A stretch of 64,000 bases of DNA from Giardia intestinalis (Eukaryota): the NCBI GenBank assembly GCA_000002435.2, contig CM018793.1, one strand, 5' to 3'. Shown in pieces: positions 25,412 to 64,000 of this stretch. The notes below the pieces were generated by a model. It ran no database searches. It saw only the letters and a list, made by a program, of their open reading frames with translations, and was not told the origin of the DNA. A program made the position numbers and the translations under genes. The stretch's first letter is position 1; each line of letters opens with the position of its first letter.

Positions 25412-26017
25412 GACCTATCCTGTCTTATTCACTGTCTACACCTCAAGATAGCCACTTATCATTCTAGCAGCTAGAGTTCTCAACTCTCCAGTGTTATGTC
25501 CTTGTTGGATCGCCCATAACTATCTGGTGCGTTGTACCGTAGTTTTCGATGCACGTATGCAATGCAGTATCCGATTGTATCTCTATTCGGCAAACGTGAG
25601 ATGTACTTGGATTTACCCTTGAGGCAGAGTATTCATCTTATTAGACGCAACAGTGCTGCCGACCAAGCCACTGCTAGGCAGAGCACACGGCCTGTATCTG
25701 CTCATCTCGTGCTCTAGCCAGCCACCCTGCGTGAGCATCTGGAGACATGCCTGGACATATGTGTGGTATTCTGCGGTGTGTACGGTCCCGTGTCCACGCA
25801 GTAGGCCAGCCAGAGAGCGTGTGCAGGCACGCCATGTGGCACCACGTCCTTTGTGGAGCGCTGGAGGAATACACAGGTGAGGGTCTACCATCAAGATGCG
25901 GACACGTTGCTTCCTGACATGGAAGGTCAATGAGGCTATCCAGATGGCCCAGCTATGGTAGAAGGCTAGCAGATGTGATCGTATTGGCCATCAGCACTGT
26001 CACTAACACCAACATGC

Positions 26018-27610
26018 ATGACTAATGGACCTAGCAGGGCCGCAATGTTGCTACTAGTTCTCTGCTTTTTGATGAGCGCCCTCGCCGCGCAACGCACTAA
26101 ACAACCCACATCCGACTGCGGAGTCGCAAACTGCGCCCAGTGCAACGCGGACGGCAGGACGTGTGATCAGTGCAGCGAGGGGTACAACCTCAACCAGGAG
26201 AAGACCCAGTGCACCAAGGCGTGCGCGGTCGCAAACTGCGCCCAGTGCAACGCGGACGGCAGGACGTGTGATCAGTGCAGCGAGGGGTACAACCTCAACC
26301 AGGAGAAGACCCAGTGCACCAAGGCGTGCGCGGTCGCAAACTGCGCCCAGTGCAACGCGGACGGCAGGACGTGTGATCAGTGCAGCGAGGGGTACAACCT
26401 CAACCAGGAGAAGACCCAGTGCACCAAGGCGTGCGCGGTCGCAAACTGCGCCCAGTGCAACGCGGACGGCAGGACGTGTGATCAGTGCAGCGAGGGGTAC
26501 AACCTCAACCAGGAGAAGACCCAGTGCACCAAGGCGTGCGCGGTCGCAAACTGCGCCCAGTGCAACGCGGACGGCAGGACGTGTGATCAGTGCAGCGAGG
26601 GGTACAACCTCAACCAGGAGAAGACCCAGTGCACCAAGAACCCAGAAGCGCGATGCAATACTCCCAACTGTAAGACCTGTGACAGCCCCAAAACAGACAG
26701 TGAAATCTGCACTGAATGTAATAATGGCAACTACCTCACCCCGACAAAGCAGTGCACGCAGAGCTGCGGAACAATAGGAAGCTACTACAACGGAGACAAA
26801 GTGTGCGAGCCCTGTGATCCTAGCTGTGCTGCGTGCATCACAAAGGGACCAGCGAAGTGCACGCTGTGTCCTCCCGGGAAGAGGCTCCAGTACACAGATG
26901 AAGGAGCCACTCAGAACGGCGGATCCTGCGTAGATGAGTGCAAGCCTGAAGGAGGAGCTAGCGGATGCGAGACCTGCGGAGCCACCATCGGAGGGACAAA
27001 GTATTGCTCGAAGTGCAGCACATCCACGGAGGTCCCCGTCAACGGGGTCTGTACAGCAGACAATGCCCGCGCAGCTGCGTGCAAGGTGAAAGATGGCAAG
27101 GGAGGGTGCACTACGTGTGAGAGTGGATACTTCCTCCAAGACGGCGGTTGCTACAAACTCGGTAGACAGCCCGGTGAGCAGATATGCACAGCAGCCAGTA
27201 GCGCTGGTAAGTGCGAGACGTGCGCCAATAGTCTTCAGCCCAATAATGGAGCATGCCCCTCGTGTCACTCGACCTGTAAGACATGTCGTGATGCTAATTC
27301 TGCAAATGCTTGTACAACGTGTGCAGCTGGGTACTATATGGTCGGATCAGCAGCTGGACCATGCACTTCGTGTGACAGCAACAGTGGAAGTGTCAAGGGA
27401 GTTGCTGGCTGCATGAGCTGCGCTCCTCCATCGTCTAGTACTGGCTCCGTCCTTTGCTACCTCATGAACGGTGACAGTGCCGGCGGAAGCACGAACAAGA
27501 GCGGCCTTAGCACAGGCGCCATCGCAGGCATTTCTGTCGCAGTCATCGTTGTCGTGGGGGGTCTTGTCGGCTTCCTCTGCTGGTGGTTCCTCTGCAGGGG
27601 CAAGGCGTAG
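26018..27610 (+). CDS. variant-specific surface protein (VSP) with five 35-aa tandem modules
   Basis: Signal peptide, many CxxC motifs, a GGCY motif, a C-terminal TM, and the invariant tail FLCWWFLCRGKA-stop. The vsp extended poly(A) signal follows. Confidence 0.95.
   Translation: MTNGPSRAAMLLLVLCFLMSALAAQRTKQPTSDCGVANCAQCNADGRTCDQCSEGYNLNQEKTQCTKACAVANCAQCNADGRTCDQCSEGYNLNQEKTQCTKACAVANCAQCNADGRTCDQCSEGYNLNQEKTQCTKACAVANCAQCNADGRTCDQCSEGYNLNQEKTQCTKACAVANCAQCNADGRTCDQCSEGYNLNQEKTQCTKNPEARCNTPNCKTCDSPKTDSEICTECNNGNYLTPTKQCTQSCGTIGSYYNGDKVCEPCDPSCAACITKGPAKCTLCPPGKRLQYTDEGATQNGGSCVDECKPEGGASGCETCGATIGGTKYCSKCSTSTEVPVNGVCTADNARAAACKVKDGKGGCTTCESGYFLQDGGCYKLGRQPGEQICTAASSAGKCETCANSLQPNNGACPSCHSTCKTCRDANSANACTTCAAGYYMVGSAAGPCTSCDSNSGSVKGVAGCMSCAPPSSSTGSVLCYLMNGDSAGGSTNKSGLSTGAIAGISVAVIVVVGGLVGFLCWWFLCRGKA
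26126..26638 (+). repeat. 105-bp perfect tandem repeat, about 4.9 copies, inside the VSP coding region
   Basis: Units start at 26126, 26231, 26336, 26441 and 26546 and are identical base for base (gcaaactgcgcccagtgcaacgcggacggcaggacgtgtgatcagtgcagcgaggggtacaacctcaaccaggagaagacccagtgcaccaaggcgtgcgcggtc). Confidence 0.95.
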
Positions 27611-27616
27611 ATGTGT

Positions 27617-27631
27617 ACTTAGGTAGTAAAC
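27617..27631 (+). promoter_or_regulatory. vsp extended polyadenylation signal ACTTAGGTAGTAAAC (contains AGTAAAC)
   Basis: Lies 6 nt after the VSP1 stop. The same 15-mer follows VSP2 and its inverted copy. Giardia poly(A) signal consensus is AGTRAAY. Confidence 0.8.
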
Positions 27632-28664
27632 GCGTCATTGTGTGTGGCTTATATAAATGTGCTGCTGGGGCTATCTGAGCGTGGCCCAGAGGTCGTGCGG
27701 GTGAGCCCGCTCCTTCCTGGCCAGTCCAGGAACGATGGCTGGTTTTGGATGATATAATAGGGATCTCCCTTCACTTGTATACCAGGAGTCTTTTGCGTCC
27801 CTCAGTTGTTCCGCAGAGGTGTGCTCAGTTCGAGTGTGCGCGTCGCTCAGCCCAGGATTCAACTTACTTGTCCATCTGCATTGTCCACCATTGGTGCCAC
27901 TTCTTGGTCTACCGCTCTGATGCCGGAGGGTCCCAGTAGTTGATGACCCTGGACTGACGCCTCGACAGACCGAAGCATCAGCCCAAGTGTGCTGTGCAGT
28001 GCAGATGGACCAGCCCACACGTCACTGAGCCAGACGCACTGCACAGGGTGAGCGTCGACACGGTCTCGTACTGGATGACGGACCACCTGCAAGAGCGCAC
28101 TGCGATCCATGAGCAGAGGACCATACTTCTCCCCCGATACCAACGCATAGGAGCTGTCCGCCGGCATCCACGAACGCGTACTATGACTCCAAGATAGAGG
28201 CGCACGGGGAGCATACCCTCCGATCATACTCGGAACCGATGATCGCTTCATGGGGAGACAAAGAGGTGCCCCGAGGAACGGGATAGGCACCCGAGGTCGT
28301 GGCGTGCGATCTTCGTCACGGAGCACCAGGGCCACGTGGAGGCCAGGCTGCTGTGACCGACGGTAGCCCCGAGACAACAGGTGCTCACTAGATATCAGAC
28401 GATGGTTGACCCCGACGGGCCAGAGGATGGGAGGAATCTAGAGGCACCGCGAGGAGCGGCAGGTCCCGGGGGAGACAGGATATAGGAGTTCTCCCGCCGG
28501 GATCGAGGGCATCCGACTCTCGGATTTCTGATCTCAGCTATTGTATGAGCGAGAGGCTTGCCCAGGGCGGCAATGGCTCGCATGAAAAGACCACTCCGGT
28601 AGCAGGCGACAACCCCGCCTCATTAAAATTTACTCTTCCCTAACCTCGTCTCTCTAGATATCTG

Positions 28665-41613: not shown

Positions 41614-44600
41614 ATGTTTCCTGGCTTACCGAATCCCAGTAAGCCGGTGACTGACAACGATATTATGGACGCGTACCTCCAACTGAGGAAGCAGACGGGA
41701 TCCCGGTCCTCTTCGCCAGCTAAGTCCTTATCGAAGCCGGCCGCCCTTCCCAAGACTCTTAAGCCTATACAAGTTTCGCATCAAATGAAGATAGATACTG
41801 AAACGGCTTCTCTAGCGGTAGAGCATCGGTTTACAGATCACATGTACGACCTCTTTGGAGAGCTTGAAAACGATCCTATTTTTGGGGAAGATGGGCTACT
41901 GAGGAGCAATGGTTCACTTCTACATGTCTCTTCTTCTCTCAAAGTCCCTTTCGGCAAAGAGGTTGGCATTACTGACCTTTCGCCCTCCAGATTCTCGACC
42001 GTGTCTAGCCCTTCCCCGCACTCAACCAGCTCAGGTAGCCTCAAGACAAAGGATCCTTTGGATATTTACCTAGAGTCGGCATATTCTGCTTTAGACACCG
42101 TAAACACCTTTGACCCTTCCGCCGCAGATGTGCTCTATAGGGTGATTAAGTGGCTAGTAACCGACGCTCGAGTCAAGCCTGAGGAGGTAGCGCGCCACAA
42201 GGAAGCATCTGCCCATGCTCTCGCTCTGGTCGCAGACAGAGAAAAAGTGATCGAATCCCTTACAAAGGAGAAGAACTCTGCTGTGGCCGAGTTTGAGGAC
42301 CTACGAAGACAAATAAAAGACTCAGAAAGCGCTGCTGCTAGACTCCAGTTCGACCTAGACTCATCTAGAGCGGAGATTCGCATGCATCTGGAGAAGATCT
42401 CTCTTCTCCAAGCAGATTTACTTGAAGAGGAAAAAAAGTTTTATGACATGAAGATGGAGAGAAATAAGTTAGCTTACCGGAACACGGAGCTGGTCACCAC
42501 TGGTGTTGAGTTACGCACGCAGATAGAGGAGTTTATTAAAGTCCAGAAGGAGTGCACGTCTCACGACGAGGAGTACACTATGGAGATTAAAAGGCTGAAG
42601 AGTGAGCTTGACAATCTGAAGGAGCAGTATGACGATGACATTGTGGCGTATCAGCAAATAGTGGGCTCAAAGACAGAGTTGATTGCAGATTTAACAATGC
42701 AATGCAACACGGCTCAGAATGAAGTTATGATATTAAAGGACAAACTAGCGTACATGCAGAATTGTATTATGGCCAACAAAACGGTCTCAAGCCAAAGAGT
42801 CAAAGATGGGAGCCTTGAGGGCAGCCTTGTCGGGATTGTCGATCAATCAACAAAGAATACTAAAGGCAGTGGTGATCAATCTGATACCGCGTCACAAGCT
42901 AGAGCGGCTGTAAAAAAATCTAAGCCAACTCGTGGTATCGCTGTCCAGATAGGAGGTGACAAAGATGGCCTCTGCACAGTTGCAGGAGAAGATCTAGAGG
43001 ACTCTGAGGCTAGCTCATTTATCCAGTTCAGACTAGGAGATGCAGGAGCCGGTTCTCAGCTACTGGACTTGCCCTCTCTGGCAGCCTTCCTATCTGCCCA
43101 AGTGAGCGCGGAGGCATCGAAGGTGAATGCCCTGCTGGATATATGCTCTACTGGTTCGCCTTCTAAGCAGTCCAATGTTGCTTCCAATGTAATCAGGCGG
43201 AAGATGCAGCTATTCAACAATCAGGTTTCAAAATATAAAGAGCTCTTGATCAAACTTGCTAACTCTGAGGACGTGGCTGTCGATCTGGACGTAGACTCAG
43301 ATATAGACTTTCAGGCCAGCCCACATACCCACTCGGCAAAGAATCCAAACGAGAACCCTTCCAAGAAGACTCTGCATGGAGTAAGCTCCTCTTCTGATGC
43401 CCAATTGAAGACCGATGACATTAGGACGTTGCAGACTATACAAGCAGTGCTTGGTGAGACGTTTACACTGGATGATCTCATCACTAACGAGGAGCTTTTA
43501 CGCATCGTGGGAGAAGCGAAACTGAACTTGCTTCTAGGTAAACTCAAGCAGAGAGGGTGCTCAACCTTTAACGCGAGCAACCTACTCAGCGAGGCTAGCA
43601 CTAAAGACGCCGATGATTCTAAGCTAAGCGTGGCACAGCATTCTCTACCACTCAGGGAGCCAGGAAAAGAACAGCTATTTGCAGCTACGAGTCCTCATGT
43701 TAAAGCACCCAAAAAAGGAGGACAAAAGAATGCACTAGGAACAGAGTCCTTAACCCGCAAAAAAGCTCCATCATTTCCGCAAAAGGTGTTGAATCACACT
43801 GGAGTTAGAACTGCACAGAAAACCATGCCTAATCGTGCAGCAGTACGTGATGGCAAACTTCCACAGGATGAGGCTTCACAGCTTGTCATGGACGGCCGCT
43901 TAGAGGGCCAAATGCTGCAGAAGATCACTGATATTTCGCAAATTGATGTCAACCTTAATCCAGAAAACGACTCACTGATAGAGGAAAATGGGCCAAGCAA
44001 TCTCCTACCTTCCGATATGACTGAAGAGACGCCTATCTACGGATATGTGTCACCGGCTCTCACCTCAGATATATTTGGTGCTGACCCTAAAGGATCACGC
44101 GAGTACCCAACCAAGGTTATCACTGACAAGAACACTGTGGAGAACAAGCCCGAATCAGTTGTGCATAATAGACTCTCTACTGAAACGAGTGTCTCCCAGA
44201 AAAAGCCTGTAACAGCTATTGCTATGACAGGAACGCGAACTGCGACCCAAGAGTCAGCAGAAGAGACACACCAAGCTATGAAGGAAATTCTTGAGCCTCC
44301 TGCTCGCCTGCAAACGCCGCAAGATCAACAGAGGCAGAGAATGCCTCCTGACACGAAGCAACAGGCCATGTACACTGTCACCACCAAGCAAGACTCTCAA
44401 TTGTTAACTGGAATGGTTGTTAAAGCAACAGGTCCTCTAGTTTCTGAAACGCCAGTGCGCATAAAAGGCACACCATCCGTTCAGGTAGGGAAAGCCACGC
44501 CACACATTTATAAGTCCAGTGTACGGCAGCCTAATGACCAGATGGTATTTCTACCAGGTAACCCAGTTAAGAGCATAGGCAAATTGAATGACCATCAGGA

Positions 44601-47600
44601 CAGCGACGATGAATCGGAGTCCAGTTCATCTTCGTCTCTTTCACTAAGTTCACACTTTGAAGATGGCAAGCTCCTAGAGAAGGATGTTGCTGGCGGAGTG
44701 ACCAATGAACCGGCTGCATCTCCAACCCAAATAGGTCTTACTGAAGATCGTAAACATAAAAAGAAGAAGCATAACGCTAAAGCACATATTAAATCTGATA
44801 AGGAACAAGGCATATTGATACAGCTCCAAGGAAAAGATGCTAAGAAGGGCTACTACACGTATCTACAGACAAAGAACGACAAGGCATTGCAGTATGAACC
44901 TCTCCTCGAGGGCAGCCGTGCATTTTCTGATGTTATTCTCACGGCGTCACATATTTATGATCCACATTTTGAGAATGCCCTTCTGGCGAAAAGTAAGCAG
45001 GCGCTGGAGCGCATTAAGACCAGGGCCCTGTCGGACCGCACAAAGCTACAGATGGCAGACCTTGATTATAACTACAAAATGCCGGCAAACAGCATCTTGC
45101 AAGGATCCCAACTTCTCAAACGTCAGCAATCAGAGCCGGATCTGTCCAGGGGCTCCGAGAAGCTGGGCGGCCCTATCGTTACGGCCTTGTTTGATGGAAC
45201 AATTCCTCATGTAGATGGAGTTACATCAGTTGCAAAGAAACTGATAGAAAATAAAGCTATTGATCACACTCCTAGAGGAGATGCTTCTGTGAGTGACCTA
45301 GATCTTTCGGGCCTTAGAACATATGACACAGGAAGCTTTGCGTCAAGCAAGTCGGTATTGGACAATGACGATCCACTAATTGACATGGCACAACGCGCAG
45401 TGAGACATTTCCGCTTGGTTGGTAAAAGCATGCAAGCGGACGACACTCCACCCTTCACTACTGAAGCAGCTACCAGTACACCCATGCGGGAAGAACTGCC
45501 CACAAATCCTAAGCCTTTACTCTCCTTGCATCAATCACCTCCAATAGAGCTGCAAGAGCATAAGACTGCGGCTGGGGAAGTGTGCCAATCCAGTCACGAT
45601 ATGTCTGCGTCGAAGCCTGAACCTACCCTAGCGTCTGCAAAACGTGAGAATTTAGTCTCACAGGCGAGCTCCTTGTTGAAGAAAACAGCCCCCATCCTGG
45701 TTCGTACATTTGAACCTGATCCGCTTTTATCGGACCGAGCCACTGATGAAGAAGGTAGCACTAATAAGTGTTGTTATGATATTGAGTCTATCTTTTCACT
45801 GGGAATGCCTAGCGACGAGAAGTCCTTTGAATTGCTAAGAACTGCTGTTTCGGCGCTAGCTGCTAAAAATATGGCATTGCATGATGAGATAGAAATGCTT
45901 AAGCAGAAGCTTGCAAGCGCTAAATCCACTAGCATCGCTCATCCGACTCCGTCAATATCTATGGCATGTCAATCAGATCCCAATCCAGCGGCAATGGCGT
46001 CACCAGCAAAGACAGATACTGAGGCATTTACTGTTGCCGCGGATTCATCTCACCCGAAGCGGCAAGAATTGCGATCTTTTTATCCCCCAAAGGCATTGAA
46101 TGTTCCTGCGCAGTGTTCTTCTAATGACCTCGTGGACCAGCAGCCTAATGCTTCTTTTGTGTCGCCTCCAACAAACTCCTTTGTAGAAATTAAGTCACAG
46201 GAGGGACTGATAGATACACGCTCTCCATGTCAATTTGAGACTGATCAAAGGACTATCAATTTGGAGTTTTCCAACGAGGAGAGAGTAGGTTCAGCGGTCG
46301 TAAAGCGAAAGCTAGGATATGAGGTGTTGACACACGTTGCCCAGGTAGCTCACGAGCCGCTTCTCAAGCCAAATAAGGACATAGTCCACCAATCAGAACT
46401 TTATGCCTATCCTCTTGTTGATCCAGCAGCTGAGAATACAGCGGATGGTGGCTTTGGAGCTTCACTTACCTATGATACTGCCTTAAATCTGGCGAAGTCT
46501 TCTATTAGCAAGTCGATAATAGTTAAGAACAAGGCCATAGATCATCCAACCCAGTCAGCAGAGCTCGACAATCTAATGCAGATAGACCCTAACAGTGAGC
46601 ATGTTCTTGCCCTGTCTGATGGCTCCGAAGATGAATTCCATCAGTTGGCAAGTACCAACACTGCTGATACTTTTAGACCCAGTGCTACAGAACAGCACAT
46701 AAATAGAATTCTGTTTCGCAATCACGCAAAGCCTCTGCTAGATGAGTACACGTCCATCAAGCATGCCAATGGACTCACTACTAATGCAAATTCACGCGAC
46801 GAAAATATTCCTAGTGCTCGATCCGCAGCACTACCTGTTTTGGTTACTGATCTAAAAGCTGCAGGTCTCAAAGGGAGGCCTCATCGCTCTGCAAGCGCAT
46901 CAACCAGTGTCCAGGGTACTGCTTTGCAACTGTTCCCCGCGGAAGATATTGACACGCAAAATCAGTATCTGGTAAGAACAGGATCATGCAAGGCAATCTT
47001 GATAACTACGCAAAATGAAGAGCCCCTGGGTAGCAAGGAATTAGAAAATTCTAATGGCAACATTGCTAGCAGTACTGATAATCAAAAACCTCCTTCAACG
47101 TCTGATAGGTTTTTACAGGGGCTGCAACCTCCCACCAATGGAAGAATCCAGCTAGATGGAGATGAAGATAAGACCACTGTTGTTGGCGCATCTCAGTACA
47201 ATCCATATATGCAGAAAAGAGTTGTGCCTTATGGAGACTTGCAGACGAGTAGAATCCACGTCCAGGATAACTGCGAAGTGGTCCCTGCTGATCTTTTATA
47301 CAAGGAGCCAACCGATGAAGAGGTAATAAGGCAGCACATACACCAGTCTGCACAGGCAGACCTAGATGCTTCGGCTGAAAGGCTTGGCAGTCTGGTGCGT
47401 AATCGGTGCAACGCTATCACAGAGCGCCCTATCAACTTAAAGTCACAACGCTCTTCTCCAAAACAATCGCCATCTAGATCTATCTCCCCAACCGTTACAG
47501 CTATGGGCAAGGGCGAGGTTTCTGCGGAGCCTCACCTCTATACTAGCGCACCTCTGAGTCCTATGCGGATGCTTCCACAGCAAAATGACGGGGCCGTTCA

Positions 47601-49803
47601 TCAGGGCTTGCAATCCAAACGTATGTCATATCCAAACACGTTCACTTGGAGAGAAGAAAAGCACCATGATTTTCAGGTTCTGTCTCCACGACGGCACACA
47701 TCAAACAAGAAGACAGGGTCATCGTTCAGCTTAGCGCTAAAGAAGGAAGAGCTGCGGCAACGGAATGAATTAGCTAAGCACATTCACATCCTAGAGGCAG
47801 AACTAGCGCTTGAGCGACAGCGCGTTGAAATGGCGCAGACAAATCCCATGATGATATCGTGCAACTACAATCCAAGCTCTTACCCCTCTGCATTTTTTCA
47901 GGTGAGCGACGGGTTCAAGACTATAATGATCAAAAATCTCAAGAGCAAGCCAGCTGCCCGTCTCCTTTTGCGTGTAGGATCAGATTCTTTAGAGCGGAAC
48001 GATGCTTCTTCCGTGAGGGCGCCTGTAGCAACCCGCTCGCATAGATCTGTTCACCTTCCTTCTGCTCCAGTGGCTATTCCATTATTTGAGCCAACTGAAG
48101 TCCATCAAGGGCTGGCGATAAGCGTTAAGAAAGAGCAGAACCCGGATATCAATGAGCATGTTACCTTCAATGACTCTCTCACCTATGCCACTGCACTAGA
48201 CTGTTTACTGAATGAGATTTTTCCGCTCCCGCCTTCTATCTATAACAACACGCTGACATCATCAGCATTCCTTCAGTCCTATGTTGCAAAGTTTCCAGAA
48301 CTAGCTGAACTACGCAGAGCTCGGACAGCTGCAGCAGATATTCTTCTTTTAGTTCCAGCATCCTGTCCTGCAGCAGAATTGGGAAAATACATTTGTGACT
48401 ACCGTGCGACTAATCCACAAACACATACCTATCCATTGGCTATCGGGGACAAGGTGACCATGGTCTTTTATAAACAAGAGCTTACCAAAGGGGATGGGCG
48501 CGTCATAGAGTCCACACCTGATCCTGCTATCCAGTTCCTGGTCACTAACTCACCAGATCTACAACTGTTACGATATAACACTACAGCAATATATGCATTA
48601 CTTCCATGCCATGTTAAGATTAAATCCATCTCTTGGTTGACACGATTGATCCGACTTCTGATTGAAGAGATTACAAGTCAGGGCCCAGTATCTGCTTTGC
48701 TAGATAGGAACATGGCTATTAAGCGCGTCCATTTATGGGCAAAGAAAAAGTATGGTCTTCAACAATTGGTTACGAATCTTCTCTGGCATCTGTATTGCTC
48801 TCTACTTTTTCATCGACGCACTGATGTAGAGGTGGATTTCTTTGCACGTATTCTGTGCGGAGACTATGATGCCGACCAGCTAAACTTTTATTTGAGCCTC
48901 CGCGATCTGCTTATGCTATCTGCAGGTGCTCAAGATAAGGATAAAGATAAAAGTAGAGACAACTGTGATAGCGGAGATTCTTCTGCAGCTTCCGATAAAA
49001 GTCAACACATAATCGCCTTGAGCGCAGCATTCTCAGTGACAGACAAGCTTTTCCCGATGCTAAACTCCGCTGACGCCTATGAGGTGTTTGGGGCCATCCT
49101 GGACAATTCTACCTTAATGACAGACTCCAGGGATGTTTTCAGAACCGATCTCCGTGCGCATATTAGCACTGTAAAAGACAATCCTGACAAGTGCTCCTCC
49201 ATACGGTCTCTTTCCGTGCCTGTAGGAACTCTGGAAACGTATGTGCTCGTACACATATTACTTAGCATATACACATCTAGAAGAACGGTATTTAACATGC
49301 ATCTCATAGATTTGTTTGAAGCAAGTGCTAGCAGTGCCGGTCCCAAAGCAGGACTGAGCTTAGAAATTGGTCTCGAGATTCTGCGGAAAGCGTGGCCGTA
49401 CCTGCACCGCGAGACCATACTCTCGTTAGTTCATAGAAAGAACCCCAACTCCGCGGTAACTCAGGTGCTGCATTTCGAGGAGTTCGTGGAGCTGTTGGCA
49501 GGTCTTGTTATTGCACCCCCTACTACGATAGACCCTCTCCTTCTACAAGCAAAGGCCGGATTTGCTGCTGCGGAGCAGCAAGCGGTGAAGTTGATACCTC
49601 TTTTGGACAAGGATGTGCCGGACGATGCAGCGCTTTTGCAGGCGCTGGATTCTTTGCGGCAAGATGCCATTGCTGCGCTGCAAAGGCAGTGTTCGCTCAA
49701 GGCAAATGTTGTGGTCGCTGAGTACCTTCGGGTGGCAGAGTTTGAAGGAATGAGGAGAGGCCTTGTGGAAGAAACTCCCGATACTCCAAACGAAATAGAA
49801 TGA
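41614..49803 (+). CDS. giant hypothetical protein (2729 aa), N-terminal coiled-coil region then Ser/Thr-rich low complexity
   Basis: 8.2-kb uninterrupted ORF from an ATG 20 bp after the previous stop (ataaaataagcaaaaacgtcaaagatagc-ATG). Coiled-coil segment ~residues 190-400. Confidence 0.7.
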   Translation: MFPGLPNPSKPVTDNDIMDAYLQLRKQTGSRSSSPAKSLSKPAALPKTLKPIQVSHQMKIDTETASLAVEHRFTDHMYDLFGELENDPIFGEDGLLRSNGSLLHVSSSLKVPFGKEVGITDLSPSRFSTVSSPSPHSTSSGSLKTKDPLDIYLESAYSALDTVNTFDPSAADVLYRVIKWLVTDARVKPEEVARHKEASAHALALVADREKVIESLTKEKNSAVAEFEDLRRQIKDSESAAARLQFDLDSSRAEIRMHLEKISLLQADLLEEEKKFYDMKMERNKLAYRNTELVTTGVELRTQIEEFIKVQKECTSHDEEYTMEIKRLKSELDNLKEQYDDDIVAYQQIVGSKTELIADLTMQCNTAQNEVMILKDKLAYMQNCIMANKTVSSQRVKDGSLEGSLVGIVDQSTKNTKGSGDQSDTASQARAAVKKSKPTRGIAVQIGGDKDGLCTVAGEDLEDSEASSFIQFRLGDAGAGSQLLDLPSLAAFLSAQVSAEASKVNALLDICSTGSPSKQSNVASNVIRRKMQLFNNQVSKYKELLIKLANSEDVAVDLDVDSDIDFQASPHTHSAKNPNENPSKKTLHGVSSSSDAQLKTDDIRTLQTIQAVLGETFTLDDLITNEELLRIVGEAKLNLLLGKLKQRGCSTFNASNLLSEASTKDADDSKLSVAQHSLPLREPGKEQLFAATSPHVKAPKKGGQKNALGTESLTRKKAPSFPQKVLNHTGVRTAQKTMPNRAAVRDGKLPQDEASQLVMDGRLEGQMLQKITDISQIDVNLNPENDSLIEENGPSNLLPSDMTEETPIYGYVSPALTSDIFGADPKGSREYPTKVITDKNTVENKPESVVHNRLSTETSVSQKKPVTAIAMTGTRTATQESAEETHQAMKEILEPPARLQTPQDQQRQRMPPDTKQQAMYTVTTKQDSQLLTGMVVKATGPLVSETPVRIKGTPSVQVGKATPHIYKSSVRQPNDQMVFLPGNPVKSIGKLNDHQDSDDESESSSSSSLSLSSHFEDGKLLEKDVAGGVTNEPAASPTQIGLTEDRKHKKKKHNAKAHIKSDKEQGILIQLQGKDAKKGYYTYLQTKNDKALQYEPLLEGSRAFSDVILTASHIYDPHFENALLAKSKQALERIKTRALSDRTKLQMADLDYNYKMPANSILQGSQLLKRQQSEPDLSRGSEKLGGPIVTALFDGTIPHVDGVTSVAKKLIENKAIDHTPRGDASVSDLDLSGLRTYDTGSFASSKSVLDNDDPLIDMAQRAVRHFRLVGKSMQADDTPPFTTEAATSTPMREELPTNPKPLLSLHQSPPIELQEHKTAAGEVCQSSHDMSASKPEPTLASAKRENLVSQASSLLKKTAPILVRTFEPDPLLSDRATDEEGSTNKCCYDIESIFSLGMPSDEKSFELLRTAVSALAAKNMALHDEIEMLKQKLASAKSTSIAHPTPSISMACQSDPNPAAMASPAKTDTEAFTVAADSSHPKRQELRSFYPPKALNVPAQCSSNDLVDQQPNASFVSPPTNSFVEIKSQEGLIDTRSPCQFETDQRTINLEFSNEERVGSAVVKRKLGYEVLTHVAQVAHEPLLKPNKDIVHQSELYAYPLVDPAAENTADGGFGASLTYDTALNLAKSSISKSIIVKNKAIDHPTQSAELDNLMQIDPNSEHVLALSDGSEDEFHQLASTNTADTFRPSATEQHINRILFRNHAKPLLDEYTSIKHANGLTTNANSRDENIPSARSAALPVLVTDLKAAGLKGRPHRSASASTSVQGTALQLFPAEDIDTQNQYLVRTGSCKAILITTQNEEPLGSKELENSNGNIASSTDNQKPPSTSDRFLQGLQPPTNGRIQLDGDEDKTTVVGASQYNPYMQKRVVPYGDLQTSRIHVQDNCEVVPADLLYKEPTDEEVIRQHIHQSAQADLDASAERLGSLVRNRCNAITERPINLKSQRSSPKQSPSRSISPTVTAMGKGEVSAEPHLYTSAPLSPMRMLPQQNDGAVHQGLQSKRMSYPNTFTWREEKHHDFQVLSPRRHTSNKKTGSSFSLALKKEELRQRNELAKHIHILEAELALERQRVEMAQTNPMMISCNYNPSSYPSAFFQVSDGFKTIMIKNLKSKPAARLLLRVGSDSLERNDASSVRAPVATRSHRSVHLPSAPVAIPLFEPTEVHQGLAISVKKEQNPDINEHVTFNDSLTYATALDCLLNEIFPLPPSIYNNTLTSSAFLQSYVAKFPELAELRRARTAAADILLLVPASCPAAELGKYICDYRATNPQTHTYPLAIGDKVTMVFYKQELTKGDGRVIESTPDPAIQFLVTNSPDLQLLRYNTTAIYALLPCHVKIKSISWLTRLIRLLIEEITSQGPVSALLDRNMAIKRVHLWAKKKYGLQQLVTNLLWHLYCSLLFHRRTDVEVDFFARILCGDYDADQLNFYLSLRDLLMLSAGAQDKDKDKSRDNCDSGDSSAASDKSQHIIALSAAFSVTDKLFPMLNSADAYEVFGAILDNSTLMTDSRDVFRTDLRAHISTVKDNPDKCSSIRSLSVPVGTLETYVLVHILLSIYTSRRTVFNMHLIDLFEASASSAGPKAGLSLEIGLEILRKAWPYLHRETILSLVHRKNPNSAVTQVLHFEEFVELLAGLVIAPPTTIDPLLLQAKAGFAAAEQQAVKLIPLLDKDVPDDAALLQALDSLRQDAIAALQRQCSLKANVVVAEYLRVAEFEGMRRGLVEETPDTPNEIE

Positions 49804-59357: not shown

Positions 59358-60617
59358 ATGTTGCTGATAGCTTTCTATCTTGGGCTGAGCGCCCTTGCGG
59401 CACAATGTAAGCAAGTACAAAATTGTGCAGCAGGTAAGTGTGAGATGGTTGGCGGCACTGAAATTTGTACAGAATGCGCGACAAATGGAAACGTTCCTAT
59501 CAATGGGGAGTGTACACCAAAAGGTAATGCGGCTGATAAATGCAAGAAAGTTAACGGTAATGAGCTTGTTGACGATAAGACATGTGGAAAATGTGAGAAC
59601 ACATACTTCATGTACAAGGGTGGATGCTATCAACTTGGCAGTGATGTCGCACTCCTCATCTGCAACGATCAAGCTGCTTCACCTGGAGGGCGTAATGCTG
59701 TTGCTGGCGTTTGCACAGAATGTAATGCTACTGGGGGATTCTTCAAAAGCCCAGAGGCGGCCGACACGACAGATTCCTGCATATCGTGCAGTGATACAAC
59801 TGGAGTGCAGGTTAATGGCGGTAACACGTATAAAGGTATCGAGAATTGTGTAGTATGTGCAGCTCCAGAAAGAGGAACAGGTAACGAAAATAAGATTGCT
59901 GCATGTGAGTCATGTCTTGAAGGATTCTTCGTTGCATCTAACAAGGCAGTATGCACACGTTGTACTGATAATGATAATTGCGCTAAGTGTGATGCAGGCG
60001 AAAACAAGTGCACAAAATGTAAGGCAACAGCCAGCAAACCATATCTAAAAAAGGGCGAAACCGAGGACTCTAATACATGTGTTAATAGTAACGAATGTAC
60101 TACTGATAAAACTTACTTCACTGATGATACTGACGACCCTACTCATGGAAAGATGTGCAAGAAATGCTCAGAAGGGATAGCAGACTGTAAGAAATGCGCT
60201 CCATCATCACCTTCTGCTTTAGCTACAGTATCCGCAATTGTGTGCACAGAATGTACAACACAGACCAACAAACCCAATGTTGCCGGAACAGGGTGCTTCA
60301 CATGCTCCGTAGACGGATGTAGTAACTGTAGCGAGAATGACGTATGTGAAAAGTGTGGACCTAACAAGAAGGTGAGCCCCGGGAGGAAGTCATGCGTGGA
60401 TAGCTGTCCCGAGAACTCCATTGACGATAACTCTGTCTGTACATGCAGCAGTGGGTACAGCCCTGACAGCAGTGGGGCCTCCTGTGTGTCCACTGGCAGT
60501 AATAGGAGCGGGCTCTCCACGGGGGCCATAGCGGGGATCTCCGTCGCAGTCATCGTCGTCGTCGGGGGTCTCATAGGGTTCCTCTGCTGGTGGTTCGTGT
60601 GTAGGGGGAAGGCGTGA
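59358..60617 (+). CDS. variant-specific surface protein (VSP)
   Basis: Signal peptide MLLIAFYLGLSALAAQ, CxxC-rich ectodomain, TM, and the invariant CRGKA-stop. The track start at 59307 is a TTG. The ATG at 59358 follows gattaagaagaatctca. The poly(A) signal overlaps the stop. Confidence 0.95.
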   Translation: MLLIAFYLGLSALAAQCKQVQNCAAGKCEMVGGTEICTECATNGNVPINGECTPKGNAADKCKKVNGNELVDDKTCGKCENTYFMYKGGCYQLGSDVALLICNDQAASPGGRNAVAGVCTECNATGGFFKSPEAADTTDSCISCSDTTGVQVNGGNTYKGIENCVVCAAPERGTGNENKIAACESCLEGFFVASNKAVCTRCTDNDNCAKCDAGENKCTKCKATASKPYLKKGETEDSNTCVNSNECTTDKTYFTDDTDDPTHGKMCKKCSEGIADCKKCAPSSPSALATVSAIVCTECTTQTNKPNVAGTGCFTCSVDGCSNCSENDVCEKCGPNKKVSPGRKSCVDSCPENSIDDNSVCTCSSGYSPDSSGASCVSTGSNRSGLSTGAIAGISVAVIVVVGGLIGFLCWWFVCRGKA

Positions 60618-61162
60618 CTTAGGTAGTAAACACGTCACTGTATATGGCTTATTACGCTATTCTGCCGGGGCTATCTGAGGATCGCCCAGAGGTCGTGCGA
60701 GTGATCCTCGCTCAAGCTCTGACCAGTCTAAGGACGAGGGTTGGTCATGAATAACATGACGGAGAGCCCTCTCCAGTGACACATCCAGAATCTGGGCATT
60801 CCTCGCCGCTCCATGAGGATATGCTCTGTCTGGATGTCCATGCCGATCTATCTTGGATTCAGGCCTTCTCGCAGGCTCTCTACTCTACCCGTGGCGCCTC
60901 TCCATGGTCTTCCTTCGTGGTGGGTGAAGCTCCGGTCGCTGTTTTTTAGATGCTCCTGTCTGTCAGGGGCTGCCACCGGGCTCTCCGCTGGCTGGGCCCT
61001 CGGTGTCCGTCCGGCTGTGGCCCGGGCAGCGCTCTACGGTCGCGGTCACTTGGGTCTCAGTGGGTTCGGATGGTGGGGAGGCGAGGGGAGTTAGGGCGGT
61101 GAGGCCGGAGGGGCTGGAGGGGCTGGAGGGGCTGAGGTTGGTGGTGGTTGTATGCGCCTCTG
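59871..61162. repeat. left arm of a large inverted repeat (3' two-thirds of VSP2 plus ~545 bp of 3' flank)
   Basis: The reverse complement of 62711..64000 matches this segment essentially base for base. The outer limit of the left arm is unknown because the right arm runs off the window. Confidence 0.9.
60617..60631 (+). promoter_or_regulatory. vsp extended polyadenylation signal ACTTAGGTAGTAAAC
   Basis: Identical 15-mer to the one after VSP1. Overlaps the TGA stop. Confidence 0.8.
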
Positions 61163-62710: not shown

Positions 62711-64000
62711 CAGAGGCACATACAACACCACCAACCTCAGCCCCTCCAGCCCCTCCAGCCCCTCCGGCCTCACCGCCCTAACTCCCCTCGCCTCCCCACC
62801 ATCCGAACCCACTGAGACCCAAGTGACCGCGACCGTAGAGCGCTGCCCGGGCCACAGCCGGACGGACACCGAGGGCCCAGCCAGCGGAGAGCCCGGTGGC
62901 AGCCCCTGACAGACAGGAGCATCTAAAAAACAGCGACCGGAGCTTCACCCACCACGAAGGAAGACCATGGAGAGGCGCCACGGGTAGAGTAGAGAGCCTG
63001 CGAGAAGGCCTGAATCCAAGATAGATCGGCATGGACATCCAGACAGAGCATATCCTCATGGAGCGGCGAGGAATGCCCAGATTCTGGATGTGTCACTGGA
63101 GAGGGCTCTCCGTCATGTTATTCATGACCAACCCTCGTCCTTAGACTGGTCAGAGCTTGAGCGAGGATCACTCGCACGACCTCTGGGCGATCCTCAGATA
63201 GCCCCGGCAGAATAGCGTAATAAGCCATATACAGTGACGTGTTTACTACCTAAGTCACGCCTTCCCCCTACACACGAACCACCAGCAGAGGAACCCTATG
63301 AGACCCCCGACGACGACGATGACTGCGACGGAGATCCCCGCTATGGCCCCCGTGGAGAGCCCGCTCCTATTACTGCCAGTGGACACACAGGAGGCCCCAC
63401 TGCTGTCAGGGCTGTACCCACTGCTGCATGTACAGACAGAGTTATCGTCAATGGAGTTCTCGGGACAGCTATCCACGCATGACTTCCTCCCGGGGCTCAC
63501 CTTCTTGTTAGGTCCACACTTTTCACATACGTCATTCTCGCTACAGTTACTACATCCGTCTACGGAGCATGTGAAGCACCCTGTTCCGGCAACATTGGGT
63601 TTGTTGGTCTGTGTTGTACATTCTGTGCACACAATTGCGGATACTGTAGCTAAAGCAGAAGGTGATGATGGAGCGCATTTCTTACAGTCTGCTATCCCTT
63701 CTGAGCATTTCTTGCACATCTTTCCATGAGTAGGGTCGTCAGTATCATCAGTGAAGTAAGTTTTATCAGTAGTACATTCGTTACTATTAACACATGTATT
63801 AGAGTCCTCGGTTTCGCCCTTTTTTAGATATGGTTTGCTGGCTGTTGCCTTACATTTTGTGCACTTGTTTTCGCCTGCATCACACTTAGCGCAATTATCA
63901 TTATCAGTACAACGTGTGCATACTGCCTTGTTAGATGCAACGAAGAATCCTTCAAGACATGACTCACATGCAGCAATCTTATTTTCGTTACCTGTTCCTC
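62711..64000. repeat. right arm of the inverted repeat (continues past the window end)
   Basis: Mirror copy of 59871..61162. Only an indel and a mismatch are visible near the inner junction (ttggtggtggttgtatgcgcc vs ttggtggtgttgtatgtgcc). Confidence 0.9.
63255..64000 (-). CDS. variant-specific surface protein, inverted duplicate of VSP2 (5' part lies outside the window)
   Basis: The minus-strand translation is identical to VSP2 residues ~172-419 and ends CRGKA-stop. Minus-strand ACTTAGGTAGTAAAC lies at 63241..63255. Confidence 0.9.
   Translation of the reverse strand, partial: GTGNENKIAACESCLEGFFVASNKAVCTRCTDNDNCAKCDAGENKCTKCKATASKPYLKKGETEDSNTCVNSNECTTDKTYFTDDTDDPTHGKMCKKCSEGIADCKKCAPSSPSALATVSAIVCTECTTQTNKPNVAGTGCFTCSVDGCSNCSENDVCEKCGPNKKVSPGRKSCVDSCPENSIDDNSVCTCSSGYSPDSSGASCVSTGSNRSGLSTGAIAGISVAVIVVVGGLIGFLCWWFVCRGKA

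Follow-up and report, generated by a model that had tools for sequence, protein, structure and literature searches.

The array of identical 105-bp units found within the window (the whole 64,000-nt stretch of Giardia DNA that was analysed) is very probably the known tandem-repeat region of the gene vsp108, in which the first 35-residue cysteine module has been amplified in frame by a recent or ongoing process. VSPs form the coat of the Giardia trophozoite, and it is these antigens that vary in the course of an infection. The gene and its repeat have each been described in the literature before and constitute an ordinary case of a well-known feature. The sole new element is a literature-derived hint of a two-unit difference in array length between assemblage-A stocks.

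At 26123..26638, Tandem Repeats Finder (TRF) detects an array with a period of 105 and 4.9 copies that agree fully (100% matches, 0% indels), scoring 1032; the next-best tandem array within the 64-kb window scores 73. A comparison of the sequence with itself at a lag of 105 shows continuous identity from 26123 to 26533, such that the array reaches 26638. A run of 411 successive matches at one lag cannot be explained by chance. Four full 105-nt units are followed by a fifth of 96 nt, with no differences over the 516 nt. The original prediction described a perfect 105-bp array of 4.9 copies, with units identical base for base and including silent sites. Its period, copy number, and perfection are all reproduced, while the start moves from 26126 to 26123, which is codon position 1 of Val36 in the 530-aa model. 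If the units are read in a phase that begins at 26114, five full units are obtained, and only the opening 9 nt of the first depart from the rest.

The repeat keeps to the reading frame of the ORF at 26018..27610 (ORF listing). Each unit encodes the peptide VANCAQCNADGRTCDQCSEGYNLNQEKTQCTKACA, the 35 residues of which include six cysteines and form two CXXC motifs. The proposal that each unit specifies a 35-aa CxxC module inside a VSP agrees with the reading frame, the Pfam assignment, the CRGKA tail, and the 24 CXXC motifs of the vsp108 protein, 10 of which come from the array. The adjoining, non-repeated cysteine module is a diverged paralogue of the repeat unit and is itself conserved in VSP relatives; its CNTPNCKxCD motif is kept in VSP homologues.

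Over its full 530 aa, the product shows 100% identity to XP_001705986.1, which is a Giardia lamblia WB (ATCC 50803) VSP, and it matches the Pfam profile PF03302 (Giardia VSP) with an E value of 2.9e-98 and 329.8 bits against a cut-off of 31.4. VSP ectodomains are characterized by approximately 11–13% cysteine and many CXXC motifs, a composition shared by vsp108, for which 71 cysteines in 521 residues (13.6%) and 24 CXXC motifs are computed. The earlier assignment of the gene as a VSP is borne out by the profile match, the CRGKA tail, the CXXC content, and the identity to the WB protein. The gene thus displays the PF03302 profile, a transmembrane segment with the CRGKA tail, the characteristic cysteine and CXXC content, the initiator element (Inr), and the 3′ motif, together with the arrangement of a tandem-repeat VSP, i.e., 4.9 in-frame copies of 105 nt beginning 78 nt past the ATG. 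The 2020 model of the protein, XP_001705986.2, has 521 residues, starts with MLLLVLCF, and contains five units (supplement of preprint 10.1101/2022.03.07.483299). This start corresponds to ATG 26045, within the Inr CAATGTT at 26043–26049. Translation of vsp108 most likely begins at this codon, and the nine residues by which the ORF from 26018 is longer at its N-terminus are probably not translated. In the AlphaFold2 model, a helix is found near the N-terminus at residues 2–13. The same preprint supplement enters the 3′ motif TACTTAGGTAGTAAACGCGT for GL50803_00102662 at positions 9–28.

Table 1. Coordinates of vsp108, its tandem array, and overlapping ORFs in the window, with the array states of compared genes and assemblies
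Feature	Position	Strand	Details	Basis
vsp108 / GL50803_102662 coding sequence	26045..27610	+	521 aa + stop	ORF listing, Pfam, identity to XP_001705986.1
Older gene model	26018..27610	+	530 aa, start ATG 26018	ORF listing
VSP initiator element	26043..26049	+	CAATGTT, spans the likely true start codon ATG 26045	Motif search, Inr entry of Adam 2010, start of XP_001705986.2
Predicted signal peptide	26045..26089	+	MLLLVLCFLMSALAA, hydrophobic	Read from sequence; ATG 26045 chosen by the 2020 annotators
Diverged head of unit 1	26114..26122	+	GACTGCGGA (Asp-Cys-Gly); inter-unit counterpart GCGTGCGCG (Ala-Cys-Ala)	Units laid out in 26114 phase
Tandem array, identical units	26123-26227, 26228-26332, 26333-26437, 26438-26542, 26543-26638	+	Four units of 105 nt, last of 96 nt	TRF, lag-105 run
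Adjoining non-repeated cysteine module	26639..26755	+	NPEARCNTPNCKTCDSPKTDSEICTECNNGNYLTPTKQC	Alignment, translation
Transmembrane segment	27518..27592	+	AIAGISVAVIVVVGGLVGFLCWWFL	Sequence; helix at residues 495-517 in AlphaFold2 model
Invariant cytoplasmic tail	27593..27607	+	CRGKA (stop codon 27608-27610)	Sequence
Conserved VSP 3′ motif	27616..27635	+	TACTTAGGTAGTAAACGCGT, with AGTAAA polyadenylation signal (27625-27630)	Sequence
Antisense ORF, by-product	26054..27268	-	404 aa	Unit stop-free in antisense frame; no Pfam match
Alternate-frame ORF, by-product	26163..26777	+	204 aa	Unit stop-free in +1 offset frame; Pfam at chance level, E 0.48
P15 P0002			3.0 x 105 bp at same position, internal identity 100%	Repeat scan of fetched DNA
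P15 P0003			2.9 x 120 bp at same position, internal identity 100%	Repeat scan of fetched DNA
P15 P0005			No repeat, single module at same position	Repeat scan of fetched DNA
Beaver isolate (assemblage A)			Exon 1 180 nt (aa 1-60), gap 210 nt, exon 2 1410 nt (aa 61-530), score 2958, no indels	Draft annotation
WB ATCC 30957 (uncloned)			Exon 1 180 nt (aa 1-60), gap 200 nt, exon 2 1410 nt (aa 61-530), score 2958, no indels	Draft annotation

Adam et al. (2010; PMC2996952, Additional file 1) list vsp108 as a complete clade II gene (GL50803_102662) on chromosome 5 with a TR105 repeat of 105 nt in 4 repeats, the Inr CAATGTT, and a product of 530 aa and 54.5 kDa harboring 71 cysteines and 24 CXXC motifs. 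Both of these counts equal those computed here. The 2022 preprint (10.1101/2022.03.07.483299) also prints a 105-nt consensus identical to that of TRF, in row 28 of the ‘Consensus’ sheet of its supplement. Tandem-repeat vsp genes of WB number 30 in the former study and 36 out of 136 in the latter; their repeats are in frame and head to tail, measure 105–516 nt, and lie in ectodomain-coding sequence beginning soon past the leader.

An identical tail-to-tail VSP pair lies in the same window at 59358..60617 (+) and from 63255 to the window end (−), with a spacer of 2637 bp and inverted-repeat arms that are perfect for at least 1275 nt. The spacer matches that of the pair d14331/14331 on chromosome 5 (Xu et al. 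2020, Table 2). On the basis of this reproduced pair, the window is assigned to WB chromosome 5.

The closest full-length relatives of vsp108 are three VSPs of the assemblage-E isolate P15 (P0002, P0003, and P0005), with 64–73% amino acid identity. In all three, the module or array lies directly upstream of the CNTPNCKxCD module, as in WB vsp108. The single module of P0005 is 82.7% identical to the WB unit at the DNA level, and the remainder of P0005 is 81% identical to vsp108; for the P0002 unit, identity to the WB unit is approximately 68%. The unit sequences therefore differ between WB vsp108 and the P15 genes, though within any one array the units agree perfectly. If the copies dated back to the split between assemblages A and E, they would be expected to differ at approximately 18 of the 105 sites per unit, and none are seen. 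This indicates that each array grew recently, and separately from the others, out of one ancestral module, or else undergoes continual homogenisation. The recent expansion or concerted evolution that had been proposed from the WB array is strengthened by the absence of the expected differences, as well as by P15 arrays that are perfect with differing units.

In a broader comparison, perfect arrays prove frequent in the VSP family: exact amino acid tandem repeats occur in 17 of the best 120 VSP matches. Among the sequences of the preprint supplement, approximately 10 WB VSPs have single-module units of 105–120 nt with the same cysteine framework. As to whether the module is shared with other vsp genes, a check suggested at the outset, the framework is common to these proteins, while the unit sequence itself was found in no other gene.

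The conserved cysteine spacing of the module across VSPs could point to an old array, the units of which are held identical by purifying selection on the protein rather than by recent amplification or homogenisation. This explanation is hardly credible; selection on the protein cannot act on synonymous sites, yet no base differs between the units over the 516 nt, the module differs by 17% between WB and P15, and the relatives vary in having one, three, or five copies. A better, albeit improbable, alternative is that the array was imported from another VSP gene by recombination or gene conversion, such that vsp108 would be a mosaic in which a donor array sits between a 5′ leader and a 3′ body that are both shared. 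From the leader to the first CXXC, vsp108 and the chromosome 5 VSP GL50803_114813 agree at 97 of the first 99 nt, and past this point, inside the first module, the similarity collapses abruptly. At 4 of its 9 positions, the head of unit 1 also departs from the sequence of the four inter-unit junctions, and recombination among vsp genes has been reported (Adam 2010; PMC2996952). The apparently mosaic 5′ end fits the recombination described in that study. However, no other gene with the vsp108 unit was found, and every tandem-repeat sequence is unique to its gene according to the same authors. When the exact repeat-unit motifs ANCAQC and NCAQCN are sought in the best 120 protein matches, P0001 alone has them as a tandem array, and NCAQCN occurs once more, in P0005. 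Furthermore, the module of the single-copy P15 gene occupies the corresponding position and has diverged to the same extent as the rest of that gene, which fits in-place amplification.

Two alternatives concern the assembly and the overlapping ORFs rather than the history of the repeat. The copy number might be an assembly artefact, with a longer array collapsed or a shorter one expanded, as Sanger-assembly repeat numbers may be condensed (Adam et al. 2010; PMC2996952) and two nanopore hybrid assemblies seem to hold 200–210 nt more at the vsp108 locus. This is very unlikely for WB-C6. The Sanger model (2007, 530 aa) and the PacBio model (2020, 521 aa) both contain five units, with the start codon as the sole difference, and the agreement of two independent assemblies indicates that the array is not an artefact in this clone; the collapse or expansion named beforehand as the outcome that would undo the finding is thus not borne out. 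In addition, an array of only 516 bp should be spannable by single reads, and the nanopore material differs (uncloned WB ATCC 30957 and a beaver isolate), making a real difference equally likely. As for the two overlapping ORFs (404 aa antisense and 204 aa in an alternate frame), the chance that either is a genuine gene is next to nil. Both are long, but their length is due to the absence of stop codons from the 105-bp unit in three of six frames, namely that of the gene, its +1 offset, and one on the antisense strand, which makes both by-products of the repeat, as originally read. Their products are low-complexity repeat translations, and neither matches a family in Pfam.

The preferred explanation remains in-frame amplification of the resident module. 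One 35-aa cysteine module, the first past the signal peptide, would have been amplified head to tail in frame, giving five identical modules near the N-terminus, the chain end opposite the transmembrane anchor. That end is expected to point away from the membrane. The most likely origin is that 105-bp units paired out of register, either in homologous exchange or through slippage at replication; the same process would also keep the units uniform and would be recent or continuing in the lineage of assemblage A. A change by whole units, whether gained or lost, would keep the reading frame and alter only the number of identical disulfide-bonded modules, with probable changes in ectodomain length and epitope multiplicity as the consequence. 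Unequal exchange, slippage, and gene conversion cannot be separated by sequence alone. No unusual single-strand DNA structure is predicted in two units, which fold no better than shuffles (z −0.14), leaving hairpin-driven slippage without support.

An AlphaFold2 model built on 51 homologues has a mean pLDDT of 79, with values of 82–89 in the repeat region, and four short strands recur in it every 35 residues. In Foldseek searches with this predicted model, the most consistent high-probability matches (up to 0.99) are to R-spondin furin-like repeats. These matches are statistically weak, with E values of approximately 1e-3, target-normalised TM-scores of 0.3–0.4, rmsd values of 9–13 Å, and 16–24% identity; a PDB sequence search with the vsp108 protein gave no matches. 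The model lends support, though not proof, to a picture of serially stacked, disulfide-bonded modules, in which added units would lengthen the ectodomain.

The hint of a different copy number in other stocks comes from Pollo et al. (2020; PMC7048089), in which reference gene models were moved by exonerate onto nanopore and Illumina hybrid assemblies; the draft-annotation coordinates of the 530-aa GL50803_102662 protein are used here. In both assemblage-A assemblies the gap occurs at residue 60, within the first repeat unit. The 210 nt of the beaver isolate equal exactly two units. The 200 nt of ATCC 30957 do not make up a whole number of 105-nt units, a mismatch that may stem from indel errors left in the nanopore sequence. 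The neighboring gene GL50803_102654 (2729 aa; ORF 41614..49803 of the window) is approximately 14.0 kb off in both nanopore assemblies and in the window, indicating that the locus is the same. The simplest reading of these draft-annotation coordinates is suggestive of approximately 6.9 units in the beaver isolate and in uncloned WB vs 4.9 in WB-C6. In the draft annotation of the assemblage-B assembly, the matches to GL50803_102662 are merely fragmentary, from which it follows that this assembly has no vsp108 orthologue. For vspA6 and vspC5, alleles that differ in copy number are documented, as summarized in PMC2996952. The copy-number change foreseen in the original prediction thus finds suggestive support in the two assemblage-A drafts, while its effects on ectodomain length and epitope dosage are deduced. 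When public contigs were queried for an exact match to the 530-aa protein, there was none on record. In a protein-cluster look-up, the 530-aa form is a singleton and the 521-aa form is absent from the collection, with no copy-number variants found. The 42-nt unit junction has no matches in JGI metagenome contigs, and the supplement of the paper comparing Be-2 with WB-C6 does not mention GL50803_102662.

The recorded array states are 4.9 units in WB-C6, an inferred 6.9 or so in the beaver isolate and uncloned WB, 3 × 105 bp, 3 × 120 bp, and a single module in P15, and 6 × 120 bp in GL50803_114813. A tentative and rather doubtful extension is that the first post-leader module in the VSP subfamily of vsp108 is a recurrent hot spot with fast, independent gain and loss, acting within assemblage A and even between WB stocks. 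If so, changes in array length would diversify the antigens at a second level, a genetic one, in addition to epigenetic VSP switching. The repeat regions of vspA6 are reported to be immunodominant (as cited in PMC2996952), and the repeat number therefore bears on epitope dosage, antibody-based typing, and VSP-based vaccine design. The biology of the vsp108 locus has already been described in general terms, and the value of the present check is practical: the start codon is corrected, the repeat count is solid in WB-C6, and the gene is placed on chromosome 5. The short vsp108 array would be a convenient PCR-sizable marker if other assemblage-A stocks carry two more units.

Among known systems, the P15 VSPs share the position of the module with vsp108, and P0002 also shares a perfect 105-bp array. 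They differ in their copy numbers (3, 3, and 1 in P0002, P0003, and P0005, respectively), in having approximately 40 more N-terminal residues, and in gene flanks without synteny to the vsp108 window. GL50803_114813 resembles vsp108 in its 5′ end, with the leader and first CXXC, and in the cysteine framework of its unit. In contrast, it diverges past the first CXXC, and its unit is 120 bp (40 aa) rather than 35 aa, in an array that is not uniform and contains two unit variants. The Fu1-Fu2 region of R-spondins likewise consists of small disulfide-rich beta-hairpin modules in series; with a weak structural match and no sequence-level one, this is a resemblance only.

The vspC5 gene (vsp90), the classic case of a VSP with a 105-bp tandem repeat (Yang et al. 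1994, as cited in PMC2996952), has a 105-bp (35-aa) in-frame unit as in vsp108. Its array likewise begins a short way past the leader (66 bp in vspC5, 78 bp in vsp108) and, by that description, has approximately 20–25 copies running to the conserved 3′ end, whereas the 4.9 copies of vsp108 are followed by approximately 880 nt of non-repetitive ectodomain-coding sequence. The two genes also belong to different clades (III for vspC5, II for vsp108; PMC2996952). The identity of vsp108 with vspC5 was considered and rejected on account of the separate vsp90 entry, the clade difference, and the unique sequence past the array. The catalogued vsp108 (PMC2996952 and the preprint) is the same as the gene described here in protein, 105-nt period, consensus unit, cysteine and CXXC counts, Inr, and chromosome. 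Nothing of substance differs between the two, as Adam 2010 rounds 4.9 copies to 4 and the 2020 model starts nine codons later than the 530-aa form.

The gene vsp108 (GL50803_102662) begins at ATG 26045 in the 2020 model, whereas the 2007 model employs the longest-ORF start, ATG 26018 (MTNGPSRAA...), which lies upstream of the initiator CAATGTT. ORF-based gene calls for vsp108 are nine codons too long (window 26018-26044). The first 99 nt of the gene, extending from the leader through the first CXXC (window 26045-26143), are nearly identical (97/99 nt) to those of GL50803_114813, another chromosome 5 VSP gene that harbors a 120-bp repeat. Past this point, the similarity falls off sharply, and the end of the likeness has the appearance of a boundary left by recombination or gene conversion between paralogues.

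The length of the 105-bp repeat array in vsp108 may vary among stocks. In the nanopore hybrid assemblies of the beaver and WB ATCC 30957 isolates, the draft annotation of the locus requires a gap within the array of 210 nt and 200 nt, respectively, suggesting that both arrays are longer than that of WB-C6 by approximately two units.

Upstream of vsp108, the sole ORF in the ~630 nt at 25412-26042 would encode 105 aa on the minus strand (25613-25930). Xu et al. 2020 described VSP genes as lying in gene-poor surroundings, and this stretch fits that picture. On the downstream side, ~540 nt from the gene, a 190-nt stretch (28146-28335) within a GC-rich region (59-63% across 27900-28500) is 74% identical to a sequence (L001 2304-2499) upstream of P0002, a VSP gene of isolate P15. 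The two loci are otherwise without synteny; the stretch could be the remnant of an element, or else a conserved sequence carried along with VSP genes.

Coordinates of the tail-to-tail VSP gene pair and associated repeats
Feature	Position	Strand
VSP gene, 419 aa, first of identical pair	59358-60617	+
VSP gene, second of identical pair, to window end	63255-64000	-
Inverted-repeat arms	59872-61146 and 62726-64000	
9-bp microsatellite, GGCTGGAGG x3.6, and its reverse complement (two sites)	61103-61134 and 62738-62769	

The two 419-aa genes of the tail-to-tail pair are separated by a 2637-bp spacer. The inverted-repeat arms are 100% complementary over at least 1275 nt and continue past the window end. 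Both microsatellites are located at the inner ends of the arms, adjoining a unique 1579-bp center. The pair matches the known d14331/14331 (vsp107.1/107.2) arrangement on WB chromosome 5.
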